Shown here in pieces: positions 2,492 through 59,392 of a DNA stretch of 64,000 nucleotides (its first letter is position 1; each line of letters opens with the position of its first letter). The stretch is from Candidatus Omnitrophota bacterium (GTDB lineage Bacteria; Omnitrophota; Gorgyraeia; Zapsychrales; JAHFFX01). The stretch lies in NCBI GenBank assembly GCA_023247725.1, contig JAHFFW010000009.1:14424-78423 (forward strand). Direction: 5' to 3'. A program made the position numbers and the translations under genes. The notes beneath the pieces are model-generated. The model did not search any database, was not told where the DNA came from, and was given only the letters and a program-made list of their open reading frames with translations.

Positions 2492-3787
2492 TTAAGGATG
2501 TGTGCCTTTGCGGAAACACGCATTCTGAACGCAAATAGGATTTATATGAAAAAGGTAACGATTTTTCGCAATCCAGGCATACACCCAAGGCCCCATCAGG
2601 CCTGTTCCCGGAAAATAAAAAAGGATGATGCAAGGGTAAAGCATGGGCAACAGCAGGGACAATCGGCGGAAGGCAAAAAATCCGCCCGAAAGCCGGCCGT
2701 CGGGTTCAATCAAATACAGCTGACTCGCAGCCTTCGCATGATTCAAATCGGGATGAAGCAAGGTCAAATCTTCCATCGTATGGAAGTCCCTCATCTGTAA
2801 ACGCCCCCAAAGATCCATGATTTCGAGATGCCGGACACTCAGACGGCAAAAATTGCATTGGCCATCAAAAACGACAATGGAGCGTTTGGCCTGGAGGTTC
2901 AATTTCCTTCTGACTTCGATCCTTTCAAGAATTTTTTCCGGATTAATGAATAACAACATCTGCGGAGGAAACAGGAAAAAGAAAATGGCCGGCACATCTA
3001 ACGTCAGCAACAACATCAAATGAAAAATAAATCCCCAGATGATCCCGGAACGCCGAGTCGCCGGAAAAAACAGCAAAAATGGCAGGAGGAATTCCGTGGA
3101 GAAAATAAAAATTCCCGTCCAGTAGCAGAGGGCTGGATGAACCGCCAGAAAATCCCGCAAAAGAAAGTTTTTGGTCGATCCTTCGTCAGGATAAAGCATC
3201 AAATAATAAAGCGGGTTATCTTTGATCCAATTGCCTTCCGGATAAATTTTGTATAAGGCCGTAAAGAAAAACGTCGCGGCCAGCTGAATCTGCAGTAACC
3301 GCTGGATAAAATAGGGTCGAGGAGCCTTATAGGCATTGGGATCACGCCTTCTTAAGGCATCGACGGAGAAATAATCTCCCGGATAAGGCGTCAGGCACAC
3401 CAGAAAGAGCGTCACCAAAAGCAGATCCCAGGCCAAAGACGAGCCAATATAAAAATCATTGAGGGCATAAAAATAAAGTAAGGATCCAAATAATATCCAG
3501 CCGCTTGGCTGGGTGTAGCACCCGAGCAAAAAAAGCAACCAGCTGCAAAAAAGCACGGCCAACATCAAGATGATCAACCAGTCCGGACTTTGATCCACGA
3601 GATTGAGAAAATCCACCGGGAAAAAATTGGCATTGTACGTTTTAAAAGCCCCGTGGAGATAATGTTCGCGAAAATGAAAAAAGGATGGACAGACATGCAA
3701 AAAGGTTGCGACCGCCACGGCAATCCGAAATAAGGATAGGCTCAGTGTCGGGCGTTCCACTAAAAATAGCCGGTGCCAAAGATTCAT
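2492..3787 (-). CDS. HTTM-domain (vitamin K-dependent gamma-carboxylase-like) membrane protein fused to a C-terminal DCC-family (DUF393) thiol-disulfide oxidoreductase domain
   Basis: The N-terminal half is polytopic membrane protein typical of HTTM. The C-terminus carries VVFDGQCNFCRLSV, which is the FDGxCxxC DCC motif. The start was moved to Met13 (MNLWHRL), which gives an ATGA overlap with the upstream gene. The track ORF extends to 3823. Confidence 0.6.
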   Translation of the reverse strand: MNLWHRLFLVERPTLSLSLFRIAVAVATFLHVCPSFFHFREHYLHGAFKTYNANFFPVDFLNLVDQSPDWLIILMLAVLFCSWLLFLLGCYTQPSGWILFGSLLYFYALNDFYIGSSLAWDLLLVTLFLVCLTPYPGDYFSVDALRRRDPNAYKAPRPYFIQRLLQIQLAATFFFTALYKIYPEGNWIKDNPLYYLMLYPDEGSTKNFLLRDFLAVHPALCYWTGIFIFSTEFLLPFLLFFPATRRSGIIWGFIFHLMLLLTLDVPAIFFFLFPPQMLLFINPEKILERIEVRRKLNLQAKRSIVVFDGQCNFCRLSVRHLEIMDLWGRLQMRDFHTMEDLTLLHPDLNHAKAASQLYLIEPDGRLSGGFFAFRRLSLLLPMLYPCIILFYFPGTGLMGPWVYAWIAKNRYLFHINPICVQNACFRKGTHP

Positions 3788-6334: not shown

Positions 6335-6996
6335 TAAGGCATTGATGGCAATTCTCCCAGACGCGTTTTCAATTCCGATTCCAATGATTTGATCCCGACA
6401 AACATTTGATCGTTAATAAAATAAGTCGGGGTGGACTGAATCCCTAAGGCCACGCCATTCTCTTTTTCGCGAAGAATCACCGATTTGACCTCATCATTGG
6501 TCAGGCATACCTCTAATTTCAGTTTATCCAGCCCGACGGCGGTGCCGATTTCCTGAAAGATGGGATCGGCATTGATGAGCCCCTTCCAATCATTCTGCCG
6601 GGCAATCAGAAGATCATGAAAAGGCCAGAATTTTCCCTGACGGGCGGCGCATTCTGCGTAACGGGCACAAAGCTGGGCGTGTTGATGCCCGTCCAATGGG
6701 AAATATTTCATTTGCAGATAAAGTTTTTTGGGGTAGGCCGCGTAATATTGATTGAGCATGGCGACCCCGCGGGCGCAGGCAGGGCATTGAAAATCGATGT
6801 ACTCGACGATTTTGACCGGGGCATTGGGATCGCCTTTGGTGCGCATCCGACTGACATCTTTGGGTCCTTGGCTTAAATATCCTTTTAAAAGATTGATGAT
6901 GACGATGAGGAGAATGCATAAAATAACGATCAAAACAGTGGTATTTTGTTTCTTTTGAATCGCATTCTTGGCTGGTGGGTTGGAAGCCTTCGGCAT
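6334..6996 (-). CDS. DsbA-like thioredoxin-fold thiol:disulfide oxidoreductase, membrane-anchored
   Basis: N-terminal TM anchor (TTVLIVILCILLIVIINLL). CPAC active site in YIDFQCPACARG. DsbA-like length of 220 aa. First gene of the coupled operon. Confidence 0.65.
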   Translation of the reverse strand: MPKASNPPAKNAIQKKQNTTVLIVILCILLIVIINLLKGYLSQGPKDVSRMRTKGDPNAPVKIVEYIDFQCPACARGVAMLNQYYAAYPKKLYLQMKYFPLDGHQHAQLCARYAECAARQGKFWPFHDLLIARQNDWKGLINADPIFQEIGTAVGLDKLKLEVCLTNDEVKSVILREKENGVALGIQSTPTYFINDQMFVGIKSLESELKTRLGELPSMP

Positions 6997-26950: not shown

Positions 26951-27550
26951 CTAGCGCTTATTAATCGACTCTCCCTCAATGATCCCACCGGAGATGACGA
27001 CTTTTAACGCCTCCTCGACACTCCAGCCCGTATCACGGACTAATTTTTCCTCAACCAAAATAATAAATCCCGACATGGGAGAAGGGGTTGTGGGGATGAG
27101 GACCTTGAGCCACTTCTTATTGAGAGTATGATCAACGGTCTCGCCGGTGATGAATCCAATAAGCCAAATATCATTTTTAAAGCACTCAATCATCACCACT
27201 TTTTTGAAAGGCTGACGGTCTTGCACGGAAAATGTTTCGGAAAGCTGTTTCCCAACCTGGTAGGTTGTTTTGACCAACGGAATAATTTTGGCGATATTTT
27301 CTAAGAGGTTAAAGAATTGCCGCCCGATATAGTTGCTGGCCAAAAAGCCAATGAGGCACAAAACGACCAGAACCAGCAGAAGACCCAAGCCCGGAATGCG
27401 GTAGCCGATATATTCACTCAAAAAATCTGCGATGCGTTTATCAATATAGACGTAGATAAACCGCACGGCAAAAAAGGAAAGGGCCAAGGGAATAATGGCC
27501 AAAAGACCGCGGAAGATGTAGGTCCGAAGGATGTTAAAAAATTCTTTCAT
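26951..27550 (-). CDS. DUF502-family membrane protein
   Basis: 199 aa. Two N-terminal TM helices and a conserved ..PTTPSPMSGFIILV.. segment. Confidence 0.5.
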   Translation of the reverse strand: MKEFFNILRTYIFRGLLAIIPLALSFFAVRFIYVYIDKRIADFLSEYIGYRIPGLGLLLVLVVLCLIGFLASNYIGRQFFNLLENIAKIIPLVKTTYQVGKQLSETFSVQDRQPFKKVVMIECFKNDIWLIGFITGETVDHTLNKKWLKVLIPTTPSPMSGFIILVEEKLVRDTGWSVEEALKVVISGGIIEGESINKR

Positions 27551-48167: not shown

Positions 48168-48171
48168 TGTT

Positions 48172-48243
48172 CCGGTGCCCCAGCGACCCGGGATCCCGGT
48201 GACCCAGTCGATTCTCTGGGACGCTGGATCTCTGGGGCACCGG
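48172..48243. repeat. Palindromic element with 12-bp perfect arms (ccggtgccccag / ctggggcaccgg) and internal GTGACC-type motifs
   Basis: It lies between the xerC/D stop and the waaA start. It contains cccgggatcccggtgaccc. Confidence 0.35.
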
Positions 48244-48266
48244 GCTCCCCATGAATTTACTTGGTA

Positions 48267-49127: not shown

Positions 49128-49130
49128 TGT

Positions 49131-49193
49131 CCGTGACTCGTGACCGGTGGCCTGTGACTCGACGGGTCACGAGTCACGGATCACGGGTCACAA
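49131..49193. repeat. GTGAC/GTCAC heptad-repeat palindromic element (15-bp perfect arms) abutting the xerC/D start codon
   Basis: ccgtgactcgtgacc-ggtggcctgtgactcgac-gggtcacgagtcacgg-atcacgggtcacaa. There are 4 x GTGACNN heptads, then 4 x GTCACNN. It ends 3 nt before the xer ATG. Confidence 0.5.
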
Positions 49194-49195
49194 TT

Positions 49196-54936: not shown

Positions 54937-56457
54937 TTATGGCTGGGAAAGCACTTTATTGATGGCGTTTAAGTAGGCCTTGGCCGAGGCTTCCAGAATA
55001 TCCGTGCTGGCGCCGTGGGCGATCACTTTTTTCCCGCCGATCTTGACCTTGGCGGTGACTTCTCCAATCGCGTCCTTTCCCCGGGTCACCGATTGAATGG
55101 AATATTCCAAAAGCTCGCCTTTCATCTGGGTCACCGCATCGATCGCCTTGTAGAGGGCATCCACCGGCCCGTCCCCGGTCGAACGGGTTTTGTAAATTTT
55201 TCCTTTGGATTTGAGTGACAGCTCGACCCTGGGTTTTAGATTCGTGCCGCTGGTCGTCTTCAAACTGACGAGACTCCAGGTGTCTTTGACGGTTTTCACC
55301 TCATCTTCCGCAATCGTCAACAAATCCTCGTCGAATATCTGTTTTTTCTTGTCGGCCAGACGCTTGAATATCTCGAAGGCCTTATCCAATTGCGCGGGTT
55401 TTAATTCCACGCCCAGATGTTTTAAACGCTCCAGGAAGGCGTGCCGTCCCGAATGTTTCCCCAAGACCAATCCGGTCCCCACAAATCCCACATCTTCGGG
55501 ACGCATGATTTCATAGGTGGAACGCTCTTTCAACATTCCGTCTTGATGAATGCCGGCCTCGTGCCGAAACGCATTGGCGCCCACAATCGCTTTATTCGGC
55601 GGGACGACAAAACCCGTGGCCTTGCTGACCAGACGCGAGACGCGGCAGATTTCTTTCGTCTGAATGCCGGTGCAGCATCCGTAATAATCCCGGCGGGTCG
55701 CAAGGGCCATCACGATTTCTTCCATCGAGGCGTTGCCGGCGCGTTCGCCAATGCCATTGATCGTGCATTCAACCTGCCGGGCCCCATTTTTAATAGCGGC
55801 CAGGCTGTTGGCGACCCCCATCCCCAAATCGTCATGGCAATGGACGGAAATGATCGCTTGATGAATATTGGGCACATGCTCTTTAATATCCGCAATCAAT
55901 TGCCCATAAAGAGCCGGAATTGTGTACCCGACGGTATCGGGAATATTGACCGTCCTTGCTCCGGCCTTAATGACCGCTTCAAGGATGCGATAAAGAAAAT
56001 TCTTATCGGAGCGGGTGGCATCCTCGGGAGAGAACTCGATATCATCCATTTTATCTCTGGCATATTTGACCGCATCGACGGCCATCTGTAAAATCTGCTC
56101 GGGAGTTTTTTTGAATTTATGCTCAAGATGGATCTTGGAGGTGGCCAAAAAAACATGGATGCGGCCATGCCTGGCCGTTTTGACGGCCTCGGCGGCTGCG
56201 TCAATATCCTGTTTGATGGACCGGGCCAGTCCGCAGACAATGGAATTCCTGATCGTCTTGGCCACTTTTCTAACGGATTGGAAATCTCCCGGAGAGCTGA
56301 CGGGAAATCCTGCCTCAATCACATCGACCCCCAGGCGCTCGAGGGCTAAAGCGATCTCCAGCTTTTCTTTTTCATTCATGCTGGCGCCGGGCGCCTGCTC
56401 GCCGTCGCGCAGGGTGGTGTCGAAAATCAAGACTCTTTGTCCTGGATCTGACATCAT
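54937..56457 (-). CDS. leuA: 2-isopropylmalate synthase
   Basis: [14 protein letters not shown]; HxH TIM-barrel metal site; C-terminal LeuA dimerisation domain. Confidence 0.85.
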
Positions 56458-56463
56458 TCTTCT

Positions 56464-56655
56464 TTAAAATCCTTTCTCTTTCAATCTCTGCCATATCTTT
56501 TTATTTTTGGGTGGCATCAGGCGATCAAGAAAATGATTCATGTTCTCCAGCCATTGCAATTTTTGCCGTAAAGGCAAAGCGATATAGCTTTTTAAATCTT
56601 CTGTACAATATCCTTCATTTTTATTTTTCTTTCTGATCACGACCCAACTCCTCAA
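56464..56655 (-). CDS. Small hypothetical ORF (63 aa) upstream of leuA
   Basis: Track ORF with no recognisable features. It overlaps the end of the nucleotidyltransferase gene by 35 nt. Confidence 0.2.
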   Translation of the reverse strand: MRSWVVIRKKNKNEGYCTEDLKSYIALPLRQKLQWLENMNHFLDRLMPPKNKKIWQRLKEKGF

Positions 56656-57124
56656 TTTGCTTTAATCCGATGATGTCCAGTTGATCTCTCGCTCGGCCAG
56701 CGCTTTTTTTCATTTTAATCAAATTGGCAATGTCCATGACTGGCACCACTAGGCCTCGGTCTCGAAAAATCTTTCTTCGCCTGAAAGCCTTCGAGAAATT
56801 AATCGGATGATCAATGACCACATCCAAATATTTGCTTTGAAAACCTGGATCATAAAACGTAAACGCCTTCATATTTTTGTCTTTGATCCAAACTCTCCTT
56901 AACGCGGCAATCGCAAAATCCTCGATCTTCACCGGAATTCTTGGCACTAATCTTAATCTCTTAACGGCCTTGACAAAATTTCTGATGTTTCCATCTTGCA
57001 AAAGGAGGATGATATCCAAATCCGCGGTTAAACGATAGAAACCATGCAAGTTAACAGCCAACCCTCCTACGACTAAATATTTTACCTTGCGGCGATTGAG
57101 TTCCTGTAGAATTTCCTCAAACAT
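56621..57124 (-). CDS. Pol-beta-superfamily nucleotidyltransferase (Lnu/ANT(2'')-like fold), function unknown
   Basis: KYLVVGGLAVNLHGFYRLTADLDIIL matches the hGG.A...G..R.T.DlDi minimal-NTase motif. The start was moved to MFEEILQ (57124), 4 nt after the methyltransferase stop. Confidence 0.5.
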   Translation of the reverse strand: MFEEILQELNRRKVKYLVVGGLAVNLHGFYRLTADLDIILLLQDGNIRNFVKAVKRLRLVPRIPVKIEDFAIAALRRVWIKDKNMKAFTFYDPGFQSKYLDVVIDHPINFSKAFRRRKIFRDRGLVVPVMDIANLIKMKKSAGRARDQLDIIGLKQIEELGRDQKEK

Positions 57125-57746
57125 GGAATTGATCCTGGAAATCCCGAATTCTTTCTCGAACCAGCCCAACCGCCAGCCTTGGGGCTCCGATGCCGGTGGC
57201 ATTGGCATGGGAATAAATTTCGATGCGATCGATATCCTCGTCGATAACATGGCGCTTCTTCTCCCCCACCAGCCGGAGGTTGAGGCCTTTATGCTCCAAC
57301 AACATTGTTTCAATGCCGAAACTTGCAACAAATCGTTTCAAACTTTCTTCCGAGTACCCCCATTTGTGATTGCCAAAATGACCGATATAAACTGTCGAAC
57401 GCCACATATTCTCACCGAATATGAAATCCACAAAGTTATCAAATCCAAACTTAAAGTAGCGAAAAAGTATCTTCTTGAAATTAGGAACCTGCAAGGTGAT
57501 CGTTCCGCCAATCTTCAACACCCTGGCCCACTGGGCAAAAACAACATACCGCACGTACTTATCGAAGTGCTCCAACAAATCCTCGGCGAGGATGGCATCC
57601 ACGCTCTGATCTTCGTATGGTAAGGGCTGCGTCAGATCGAGAACAAGGTCCGGCTGGCAACGGGCGACCGAATCGATGTTCACCCAGCCGGGCAATTTGT
57701 TGGTCCCGCAGCCGAGGTGGAGCTTGAGGGGTTGTTCGTTAGACAT
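57117..57746 (-). CDS. Class I SAM-dependent methyltransferase
   Basis: LHLGCGTNKLPGWVNID motif I, LAEDLLEH, LKIGG. The start was moved to MSNEQPL because the track's N-terminal extension runs through a structured repeat region. Confidence 0.65.
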   Translation of the reverse strand: MSNEQPLKLHLGCGTNKLPGWVNIDSVARCQPDLVLDLTQPLPYEDQSVDAILAEDLLEHFDKYVRYVVFAQWARVLKIGGTITLQVPNFKKILFRYFKFGFDNFVDFIFGENMWRSTVYIGHFGNHKWGYSEESLKRFVASFGIETMLLEHKGLNLRLVGEKKRHVIDEDIDRIEIYSHANATGIGAPRLAVGLVRERIRDFQDQFHV

Positions 57747-57937
57747 ACTTAGTGTACGTAGGACGATGGACGTCCGTTCACCCGCCTTCGGCGGGTTCAC
57801 TTGGACGTGGGACGTTCGCTCGTCCCCGCCATTGTGGCGGGGGCTCGCTCGGACGAAGGACGTAAAATTGAATGTGGCACCATTCAAAGGCCACGTCCCA
57901 CGTCCAACGAATCTCACTGGCGCTACCTCTGGCCATT
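57747..57937. repeat. Highly structured GC-rich intergenic element with nested inverted repeats
   Basis: ttggacgtgggacgt ... acgtcccacgtccaa (15-bp arms about 80 bp apart). Hairpins acccgcc-ttcg-ggcgggt, ccccgcc-attgt-ggcgggg and ttgaatg..cattcaa. Repeated GGACG(T/A) units. Confidence 0.45.
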
Positions 57938-58366
57938 CTATGAATCCTGATCCTGTAAGAAGCGCATAATCTCCTGCGAGAACTGTTGAAAATCGGCGAG
58001 GTCATTTTGTAGGTGTTTATAAACCAATTCCCAATTAATCCGACTGTATTCATGGACGATAAGATTTCTGAATTTAACGGCCTGTGAAAATCTTTCGGCA
58101 ATGGATAAGGAAATAATATTATGCTTGGCGAGCCCGGCGAAGATATCTTTCCCTTCCTGTGGTTTGGGAAGTTTCTTTTCACTGATAATCAATTCTCCGA
58201 TATCCATCGTGCTCTCCACCGCGACTTGAAAATATCTCAATATAGCTCCTTGAACCGTATGATCTTTGAGGATCTCTGGCAGTGAGAGTTTTTGATAGCC
58301 TTGCAAATACCTCGAGCACTCTTGCAAATGCTCCATCTTGGTCACTATGGAAATTTTAGCAATCAT
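57938..58366 (-). CDS. hepT: HepT-like HEPN toxin (DUF86)
   Basis: RNLIVHEY matches the Rx4HxY HEPN motif. 142 aa. ATGA overlap with the upstream MntA gene. Confidence 0.7.
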   Translation of the reverse strand: MIAKISIVTKMEHLQECSRYLQGYQKLSLPEILKDHTVQGAILRYFQVAVESTMDIGELIISEKKLPKPQEGKDIFAGLAKHNIISLSIAERFSQAVKFRNLIVHEYSRINWELVYKHLQNDLADFQQFSQEIMRFLQDQDS

Positions 58367-58812
58367 AAGATCCCCTCCCTGGCAATCCTGGCAATGGCAA
58401 GGTCGGCGTGGCGGCCGAAATAATACTGCTCATCATAAAACTGACTCATCACTCTCGCCTCAAAATGGATCCTCGTCCATTCGTTCTGACAAACCAGGAT
58501 TTCCCCTTCTCGGATCACATTGAACTTTAAAAATAATGGCGCATCATTGAGCACCACCAGATCCACAAAAGGAGAGCTGCGCCAGGGCCCTTGCAGTTGC
58601 CCGATCAAATCCAATCGCTTTTGCAAGCGTTGATCATTATCCAACGAGGGTGCCAGATACACCGCCAGATCCATATCGCTTCGTTGACTAACTTCCCGGC
58701 GTGCCACCGAACCGAACACATAGGCCACGATCACGGTGGGATCTTTCGAAAAGCCCTGCTTCGCCTTTTCTTTCAGTTGCTCTAGCCTTTGCTCGTAATC
58801 GTCCTCAGACAT
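58363..58812 (-). CDS. mntA: MntA-like nucleotidyltransferase antitoxin
   Basis: FGSVARREVSQRSDMDLAV matches the GSxAR...SDxDL minimal NTase motif. It is paired with HepT. Confidence 0.7.
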   Translation of the reverse strand: MSEDDYEQRLEQLKEKAKQGFSKDPTVIVAYVFGSVARREVSQRSDMDLAVYLAPSLDNDQRLQKRLDLIGQLQGPWRSSPFVDLVVLNDAPLFLKFNVIREGEILVCQNEWTRIHFEARVMSQFYDEQYYFGRHADLAIARIAREGIL

Positions 58813-59392
58813 GAGAGGAAGCCCTTAAAGGAATTTGTTTGGATTTCTTAAACACTCTCACCCTATCAGCACATCCCTTGGAAAGCTGAGGTTCTGGGCC
58901 AAGTCCTTCGCTAAAGCGGCGCAACTCATAAAACAATCGGATCAAGGGATGCTCATCTTCTTTTAGTTTAATCCTAACGAGGCGACGTTTTCCTAACCGG
59001 CGATCAATCATTCCTAAGGCTCGGATCAATATTTTTTCAGAAGCCATCGCTTCATCAATGGAATACGACAAATAGTCTTGTAAAATGCGTTGCGAATTCT
59101 CATGGCCACTCATGGCTAATTTATCCATTCTTCGACCCGCCTCGAGATATCGATTCTTTTTTTCTACGGTTTGATCCATTTTTACTTGCTGGCATACTGC
59201 ATTCCAGAAGATTTCGGCTTCATGACTATTGGACCGGAAAACGATAAGGCGGTCCACAAGAATTCTCATCTCACCTAAAGCTATATGCGGGGTCTTCCTC
59301 GTCCGATATAAAACCACATGTAATGCAATCCTTTTTCTCAAGGGCTCGCAAAAGTTGCTTTCAATTTTCTTTTTTAATTGGCTCCAGTACAT
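58805..59392 (-). CDS. Hypothetical protein (195 aa), first gene of the island
   Basis: No recognisable family. It overlaps the mntA start by 8 nt. Confidence 0.4.
   Translation of the reverse strand: MYWSQLKKKIESNFCEPLRKRIALHVVLYRTRKTPHIALGEMRILVDRLIVFRSNSHEAEIFWNAVCQQVKMDQTVEKKNRYLEAGRRMDKLAMSGHENSQRILQDYLSYSIDEAMASEKILIRALGMIDRRLGKRRLVRIKLKEDEHPLIRLFYELRRFSEGLGPEPQLSKGCADRVRVFKKSKQIPLRASSHV

Follow-up and report, generated by a model that had tools for sequence, protein, structure and literature searches.

A modular palindromic repeat between hepT and a methyltransferase gene of an Omnitrophota bacterium probably belongs to a dispersed family with a MITE- and REP-like layout

Short palindromic repeats of bacterial genomes are known from several systems. 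The repetitive extragenic palindromic (REP) sequences of proteobacteria and their compound forms, BIME and REPIN (PMC3116915), are built of single imperfect palindromes of 20–40 nt; these short extragenic units make inverted doublets that fold into long hairpins in single-stranded DNA (ssDNA) or RNA, cluster and nest, occupy operon gaps, form mosaics with linkers and leave no target-site duplication (TSD). [quoted passage not shown] Rickettsia palindromic elements (RPE; PMC10969869) can lie in frame within conserved housekeeping genes, to whose products they then add a peptide loop. Heptanucleotide repeats (the tandem heptamers of cyanobacteria and the GGGAATC-type repeats of Xanthomonas and Nostoc; PMC4692102) are intergenic, sometimes inverted, and kept between the same genes in relatives while varying in length and sequence. 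Here we analyse the 191-bp spacer at positions 57747–57937 of a 64-kb stretch of Omnitrophota DNA (the window, by which we mean the whole stretch), which reaches from the stop codon of hepT to the ATG of a methyltransferase gene. This spacer is, with good probability, an asymmetric member of a family of modular palindromic DNA repeats that is dispersed in Omnitrophota and neighbouring lineages, has a MITE- or REP-like layout and behaves in the manner of RPE. The family is previously undescribed; the kind of element is well known.

The copies were collected by two scans, one of 185,579 genomes with a pattern of two direct modules (>117 loci), the other of metagenomes with an inverted module pair (117 loci, with family members among many other heptad hairpins), and by a census that combined BLAST with eleven members and an end-motif search. 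We counted ~24 non-redundant copies with common modules, linkers and termini in Omnitrophota and related metagenome-assembled genomes (MAGs) and in metagenomes. The genome scan supplied three contigs of the Omnitrophota MAG nzgw301 (loci L006, L024 and L091), three copies in MAG C20_metabat.bin.9 (L036 and two in L042) and the copies in two MAGs labelled Planctomycetales (two in L107, and L111); the metagenome scan supplied L121/L175, L122/L138, L173, L174, L180 (two copies), L201, L207 and L225 (three copies). Locus L237 also carries a copy. The core of the window copy (modules and hairpins A1, GC hairpin, A2, apical hairpin and A2′, located below) is 78–84% identical over 107–113 nt to L237, L024, L006 and L091. 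There are at least three copies in nzgw301 and at least three in C20_metabat.bin.9, three within 5.5 kb in L225, and two each in L180, L107 and L175. The original prediction would have fallen with a single-copy sequence absent from all relatives; the element is single in the window but clearly multi-copy across relatives.

The copies are 90–190 bp in size, and a complete one is a nested palindrome: GGACGTN heptads, a linker with an optional GC stem-loop, further heptads, an apical hairpin, inverted NACGTCC heptads, a linker and heptads again. Its termini are approximately GTTCCGTRGGACGT and ACGTCCYACGGAAC, found as pairs 77–190 nt apart in >15 copies. In type 1 (L237, L024 and L006) the part up to and including the apical hairpin reads ACGTNGGACGTNGGACGT - ccgctcg[CCCCGCC-N3-GGCGGGG]tctcgctc - GGACGTNGGACGT - TTGAATG-N6-CATTCAA and the rest ACGTCCNACGTCC - cagcgaac[optional GC hairpin]gtgagcga - ACGTCCNACGTCC-NACGT; type 2 reads GTTCCGTR(GGACGTN)3-4 - aaattcaaaa - (ACGTCCN)2-3 - tagcgaacgaagtgagc - GGACGTCCCACGGAAC. 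Different genomes have in common the termini GTTCCGTR, the apical TTGAATG..CATTCAA and the linker gagcga..gtgagcg; in L225, L201 and L042 a peculiar variant heptad, GGATGT, also takes the same place. Because these non-repeat modules and the GGATGT heptad are shared, the copies come from common sources and not from independent slippage. The opposite view, that heptamer slippage and hairpin-templated copying generated a simple-sequence palindrome in situ with no mobility, could appeal to the over-representation of heptameric repeats in bacteria, where they are intergenic, sometimes inverted and length-variable between relatives (PMC4692102), to the (GGACGNN)n arrays and heptad hairpins of many unrelated phyla, and to palindromes made of other short-period repeats in the window itself. 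We find this view scarcely credible against the 78–84% identity of non-repetitive modules between unrelated loci and genomes, the recurrence of the variant heptad and the copy inserted in hisF. Heptanucleotide repeats, moreover, are simple tandem arrays, whereas here the heptads belong to a larger composite whose non-repeat modules are conserved and whose ends are defined.

That copy in hisF (L180a, at 812–910 of L180) lies in frame within the gene (469–1314, − strand). HisF chains in the PDB (~253 amino acids, aa) align to residues 1–134 and 167–281 of the 281-aa L180 product, which leaves ~32 extra residues (EMTRPVGREDVGRGTCKPTYNVLRPTSYVPRN), encoded by the element, between positions equivalent to 134 and 137 of solved HisF; in the same protein the Pfam domain takes up 259 residues, against 227 positions in its profile. 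As with RPE, an in-frame palindromic repeat has thus added a peptide loop to the product of a conserved housekeeping gene. Unlike RPE, this is one secure intragenic case among ~24 copies, most of them intergenic, and sequence and host are unrelated. A second possible in-frame copy was seen in a gene for a CHASE2-domain protein (L131, 774–844).

Filled and empty sites can be compared at the junction of the window copy. The order pfkA-(fba)-ilvC-methyltransferase-leuA is conserved in Omnitrophota, and in most relatives (P0002, L243, L244 and L239) the gap between ilvC and the methyltransferase gene is at most 11 nt or the two genes overlap. In L237, the closest relative (methyltransferase 79% identical), the same gap is filled by a complete symmetric type-1 copy; in L238 it holds an 84-nt palindrome of different, ACGT-rich repeats, and in L241 the end of ilvC has become joined to a relic of a type-2 3′ arm. 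This relic (agcgaacgcaagtgagcggagtcccc, L241 3915–3945) extends the C-terminus of the ilvC product by four codons (SERK), an instance of repeat debris that has become the end of a coding sequence. With the flanking genes as reference, the window and L237 copies align in inverted orientation with 84% identity over 107 nt and directly with 79% over 63 nt, and their opposite orientation reflects either independent insertion or inversion. Membership in the family, spread over many loci, sites filled in one genome and empty in another, an in-frame intragenic insertion and the lack of a fixed orientation are thus all observed.

Several observations weigh against a mobile origin. No TSD was found at any of ~17 inspected copies, and the fetched DNA (248 loci) showed no autonomous element or transposase with shared termini, all end pairs being 77–190 nt apart. 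Copy numbers per genome are lower bounds, and the 64 kb of the window hold one copy. Copies or relics occupy the same gap between ilvC and the methyltransferase gene in three lineages (window, L237 and L241), which could mean retention for a host function instead of repeated insertion. Finally, element identity of 80–84% against ~79% identity of the methyltransferase protein hints at constraint or at recent spread, which these figures do not distinguish.

With respect to the described systems, the family has the hairpin-forming inverted doublets typical of REP and REPIN, in which one unit is repeated, as well as clustered and nested copies, operon-gap locations, linkers in a mosaic and the lack of TSDs; unlike REP, the unit is here a tandem of GGACGTN heptads, the host phylum is another one and one copy is intragenic. 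Of the features of MITEs, the family has small non-coding copies (~90–190 bp), terminal inverted repeats and filled versus empty sites, and lacks TSDs; its 42–48-nt internal units (heptads plus linker and hairpin) recall the boxB units of BOX, with which, as with the MITEs, it shares insertion of elements beside or within each other and strong predicted RNA structure. It differs from BOX and the MITEs in that it has no sequence similarity to them and that no parent insertion sequence was identified.

Nearly all copies with readable flanks lie between co-directional genes in short gaps, starting 0–30 nt past a stop codon and ending 10–25 nt ahead of the next start codon. The neighbours are housekeeping genes: AmmeMemoRadiSam B, DUF1844-like and Trm112-like genes (L225), oxidoreductase and NuoH-like genes (L042), lemA (L024), an E2 acyltransferase gene (L006), glnA and a GAF/ANTAR regulator (L121), and hisA, hisF and hisI (L180). 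The linker-bearing arm is 3′ with respect to transcription in 10 copies, 5′ in four, and both arms carry linkers in three. The gene next to the L121/L175 copy, whose product starts 'ATGTCTAACGAA', was considered as a methyltransferase orthologue and rejected, its context being glnA, the GAF/ANTAR regulator and the element.

Such locations would also suit an intercistronic RNA hairpin selected by the host, which terminates or attenuates transcription or shields the upstream mRNA from 3′ exonucleases, as some REP and BIME do, its repeat nature being secondary. For this speak the almost exclusive occurrence between co-directional genes with the whole gap filled, the very stable folding, the palindromes at the same junction in several lineages, and unrelated short-period-repeat palindromes in the topA/xerC and xerC/waaA gaps of the window. 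Nevertheless, we hold it unlikely as the primary explanation: there is no U-tract or canonical terminator, the spacer is absent from most orthologous junctions, one copy lies within coding sequence, no strand bias is seen, and the seventh heptad base is usually mismatched between the arms, so that pairing is not maximised. As a secondary, exapted effect it is compatible with a dispersed repeat. The two other window palindromes consist of inverted CGTGACN heptads (topA/xerC gap, 49128–49195) and of inverted CCCRGNGA-type octamers (xerC/waaA gap, 48168–48246); this genome seems to favour hairpins of short-period repeats in its operon gaps quite generally.

Within the spacer the repeat element proper occupies about 57756–57909. 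Its basis is a 13-nt module, GGACGNNGGACGT, present three times directly on the + strand (at 57761, 57803 and 57851, spaced 42 and 48 nt) and once inverted (57893–57905, − strand). The rest of the 64 kb lacks the module, and four matches were reached in 0 of 100 shuffles (mean 0.46). The GGACG units reiterated in the original prediction are thus four modules, beyond chance, and can be refined to GGACGTN heptads: a heptad pair followed by a linker with hairpin makes up the 42- and 48-nt units. The 15-bp inverted arms, predicted about 80 bp apart, are present as TTGGACGTGGGACGT (57801–57815) and ACGTCCCACGTCCAA (57893–57907), 100% complementary with 77 nt between them. Self-BLAST and a mismatch-tolerant motif search found no other copy in the window; end-motif matches at 27521 and 35700 are within coding sequence and look like chance.

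From the methyltransferase side, the outermost module, A0 (57756–57773, + strand), has the heptads ACGTAGG-ACGATGG-ACGT, with GGACGATGGACGT at 57761–57773, and ends 14 nt from the methyltransferase ATG on the gene strand. It is followed by GC hairpin 3 (57780–57796), ACCCGCC-TTC-GGCGGGT, nested in the linker ccgttc...tcactt. This 17-nt hairpin had been described as carrying a UUCG tetraloop; the hairpin exists, but its loop is TTC between 7-bp arms (GAA on the transcribed − strand), and no C(UUCG)G tetraloop is in register. Module A1 (57801–57815, + strand), TTGGACGTGGGACGT, is the left arm of the perfect inverted repeat. The linker tcgctcg / gctcgctc (57816–57850) holds GC hairpin 2, CCCCGCCA-TTG-TGGCGGGG (57824–57842); linker and hairpin are homologous to their counterparts in L237, L024, L006 and L091. 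Module A2 (57851–57863, + strand), GGACGAAGGACGT, precedes the apical hairpin TTGAATG-N6-CATTCAA (57868–57887), the family-specific centre of type 1 copies, whose TTGAATG..CATTCAA motif is confined to such elements (window, L001, L002 and L237). Both this hairpin and ccccgcc/ggcgggg had been correctly predicted; like the modules, the 15-nt inverted repeat, the two GC hairpins and the apical hairpin exceed what chance would give. Module A2′ (57893–57907, − strand; ACGTCCCACGTCCAA on the + strand), the sole inverted one, pairs perfectly with A1 and imperfectly (82–85%) with A0 and A2.

The window copy is therefore asymmetric (3+1): its methyltransferase side has three modules, each followed by a linker and two of them with GC hairpins, while the outer module A1′ expected on the hepT side is missing. 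The segment 57908–57924, cgaatctcactggcgct, may be what decay has left of the linker on the hepT side (cf. cagcgaacgcagtgagcga in L006). The truncated side faces the SF0329-mntA-hepT island, and the outer arm was probably lost on or after the arrival of the island.

We tested several RNA readings of this structure. Folding of the 191 nt gives −87.4 kcal/mol for the − strand (z −4.9, a value matched by none of 200 shuffles) and −84.3 kcal/mol for the + strand (z −3.7). The Rfam scan matched no family: there was no match at the gathering threshold in the window, none at E ≤ 10 in the region and none for seven family loci, the best sub-threshold score being 12.3 bits (E = 9.1). The spacer has neither a sigma-70-like promoter nor, on either strand, an intrinsic terminator (GC hairpin plus U-tract). 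Among 17 gene-oriented copies the minimum free energy (MFE) of sense minus antisense strand averaged +0.16 kcal/mol, with the sense strand more stable in eight, and RNAalifold of five type-1 cores gave 35 nearly invariant pairs with a covariation term of −1.12. Invariant pairing fits a young or sequence-constrained DNA repeat and gives no support to an ancient structured RNA. Strand-specific RNA selection was discarded as well, having left no signal in either the sense/antisense MFE or the RNAalifold result. The original prediction had proposed a structured non-coding RNA or a MITE. Its second half, a MITE or dispersed repeat, is supported by the multi-locus copies, the filled and empty sites and the copy in hisF; a dedicated non-coding RNA is not supported, in view of the missing Rfam match, promoter and terminator, the differing orientation, the lack of strand bias and the essential lack of covariation.

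A cis-regulatory leader of the methyltransferase gene, riboswitch- or attenuator-like, in which the one GGACGUGGGACGU segment would pair with one or another of three ACGUCC partners, would account for the position of the element 14 nt upstream of the ATG, for the L237 copy likewise directly upstream of the methyltransferase gene and for the alternative pairings that exist. We regard such a leader as very improbable and already largely refuted: the L237 copy is oppositely oriented, the family also precedes unrelated genes (lemA, Trm112-like, NuoH-like and his operon genes), most methyltransferase orthologues are without any leader, and neither an Rfam match nor covariation was found. The element is best read as at most a passive intercistronic hairpin and not a dedicated regulatory RNA gene.

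On its upstream side the element adjoins hepT (type VII toxin; 57938–58366, − strand), the last gene of the SF0329-mntA-hepT island, a 1.5-kb insertion (57938–59392) between ilvC and the element. A recombination site, attC-like or an island att, for the capture of such toxin–antitoxin (TA) cassettes would explain this contact. Two direct arrays of ACGTCC heptads with a gcgag..acgagcg linker flank an AbiE plus MntA/HepT island in Auribacterota (L061), and a GTTRRRY-like heptamer (57738–57744) and an RYYYAAC-like one (57902–57908) are present; with integron attC the element also shares its being an imperfect palindrome of ~60–150 nt after a small cassette-like gene. The core-like motifs, however, do not follow the attC order on either strand, and one of them extends over the start codon of the methyltransferase gene; an integron integrase (IntI) is missing, and the sole tyrosine recombinase of the window is a housekeeping XerC/XerD, 9 kb away in the topA-xerC-waaA operon, which scores 362.7 bits against 133.9 with the integron-integrase model (cut-off 265). 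Unlike attC, moreover, the copies form a conserved sequence family, and most are flanked by housekeeping genes only. Between the window and L061, the HepT/MntA pairs share only 16–29% identity, and no other hepT was found near the motif among the 248 loci. We thus judge a capture site highly improbable; the order of the motifs and the missing IntI led us to reject attC, and the HepT/MntA identities and the lack of another hepT to reject a common TA cassette that moves along with the repeat.

The L061 arrays (147–290 and 3040–3215) are made of units ACGTCCCACGTCC aagcgagtgaaacgagcg.tcgtcc, and the 2.8-kb island between them contains AbiEii/AbiEi-like and MntA/HepT-like pairs; further iteron-like repeats (TGGTGAC and TTGCAACT) lie from hepT to the second array. 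In the window, a DUF6036 nucleotidyltransferase-like gene and a 58-aa ORF (open reading frame) are inserted at 56445–57124 between the methyltransferase gene and leuA; this insertion and the TA island are both oriented as the operon. Small inserts of relatives at these junctions include crcB with DUF190 (L245) and ORF6N after leuA (L239).

The remaining loci of the scans are of other kinds. Plain (GGACGNN)n tandem arrays of 6–27 units, many at contig ends and from very diverse phyla, make up most of the genome-scan loci (L003–L119, e.g. L011, L043, L055, L066 and L110); their hosts include Marinobacteraceae S3BR75-40.1 (seven loci), Bacteroidales AM-2014_bin-2482 (six loci), Victivallales, Verrucomicrobia, Gemmatimonadales and Glaesserella. 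Soil and groundwater metagenomes contain many (GGACGTT)k - loop - (AACGTCC)k hairpins right after stop codons. In L157 a 66-nt hairpin, GGACGGAGGACGT...ACGTCCTCCGTCC, occurs twice in mutually inverted orientation (3038–3103 and 6654–6719) around a 3.6-kb segment, which looks like a composite-transposon arrangement of an unrelated family. On viral contigs the GGACGT heptad pattern gave one match against none and two for two permuted-heptad controls, and blastn found no match to the family in plasmid and phage collections. The literature yielded nothing relevant on the exact element sequences or on Omnitrophota REP repeats. A MAG labelled 'uncultured Planctomycetales' (CAZTCI010000002.1; L111; P0012) appears to hold a family copy together with the Omnitrophota-type ilvC-methyltransferase-leuA synteny, the latter read on other contigs with the same protein (L239 and L240); the label may not be exact, or the family may reach beyond Omnitrophota.

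Downstream of the element, the methyltransferase-like gene (57117–57746, − strand; class I S-adenosylmethionine-dependent type, conserved in Omnitrophota) encodes 209 aa starting MSNEQPLKLHLGCG; it and hepT were named by Pfam and NCBIfam. In three assemblies the called ORF is longer, 266 aa from a GTG at 57917, and runs through the element, which adds an N-terminal extension of 57 codons (57747–57917, − strand; GTG at 57915–57917). The 396 methyltransferase homologues are mostly 203–215 aa long and open with 'M x3-20 KLHLGCG', none of them shares the 57-aa extension, and an identical 209-aa call is on record (P0001). Given these lengths, starts and the identical call, the extension is spurious, as the original prediction had stated, and the spacer, with a GC content of 59% against 49% for the window, is non-coding. 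The other two assemblies, metagenome contigs L001 and L002, encode the same HepT and match the window throughout the spacer with 100% identity; the window assembly is thereby confirmed, while they say nothing on evolution and are uninformative for covariation. The artefact is recurrent in these genomes: read-through ORFs or N-terminal extensions cross family copies or similar palindromes in L024 (2771–3538, −), L174 (8259–8801) and P0082 / L238 (858–930), with the tell-tale peptides RPTSYV, DVGRGT and TSYV.

As to how the family spreads, we infer a trans-acting enzyme. As no TSDs were seen, the mechanism is probably one that recognises hairpins or ssDNA; the lack of TSDs and the hairpin-rich ends would resemble REP/REPIN with the transposase RAYT, or ssDNA mechanisms of IS200/IS605 type (PMC3116915). 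No RAYT (Y1 transposase) was seen in the fetched flanks, and no genome-wide search was made. The seventh heptad base is usually non-complementary between the arms, so that what is kept is the six-base core GGACGT and not perfect pairing. It is conceivable, and we would call it rather unlikely, that the core with its free seventh base is the recognition site of a dedicated enzyme of Omnitrophota and related members of the PVC group, a hairpin-recognising transposase or recombinase that makes no TSD and targets operon gaps and coding sequences; the units might also be landing pads for TA islands, as in the window and L061. The invariant core with a free seventh base, and modules both direct and inverted, could also be expected of an operator array for a DNA-binding protein of ribbon-helix-helix style that regulates the adjacent TA or methyltransferase genes. 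We find this very improbable: no DNA-binding gene is consistently linked, there is no promoter-like site, and the copies lie inside operons between unrelated genes, not at promoters.

Locally, the repeat would do no more than place a highly stable hairpin (−82 to −87 kcal/mol) into the transcript of hepT and the methyltransferase gene. Such a hairpin could serve as a barrier to 3′ exonucleases, a processing site or a partial transcription block or attenuator, roles with precedent in other REP and MITE elements (PMC10969869). It reaches to 14 nt before the methyltransferase ATG, where no Shine-Dalgarno sequence is evident. The ilvC stop of relatives directly adjoins or overlaps the methyltransferase start, a sign that the two genes may be translationally coupled and that the insertions have disrupted this coupling.

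The practical value of the finding lies mainly in annotation, and it opens no long-standing question. Gene callers have added 57 codons to the methyltransferase through the repeat in three assemblies, and a family profile would clean the annotation of Omnitrophota of such spurious ORF extensions and account for some contig breaks. For the biology of the phylum, which is little studied and mostly uncultured, it documents a repeat family that behaves like REP, MITE and RPE elements; its copies point to operon junctions prone to insertion, and essential enzymes can gain loops from them.

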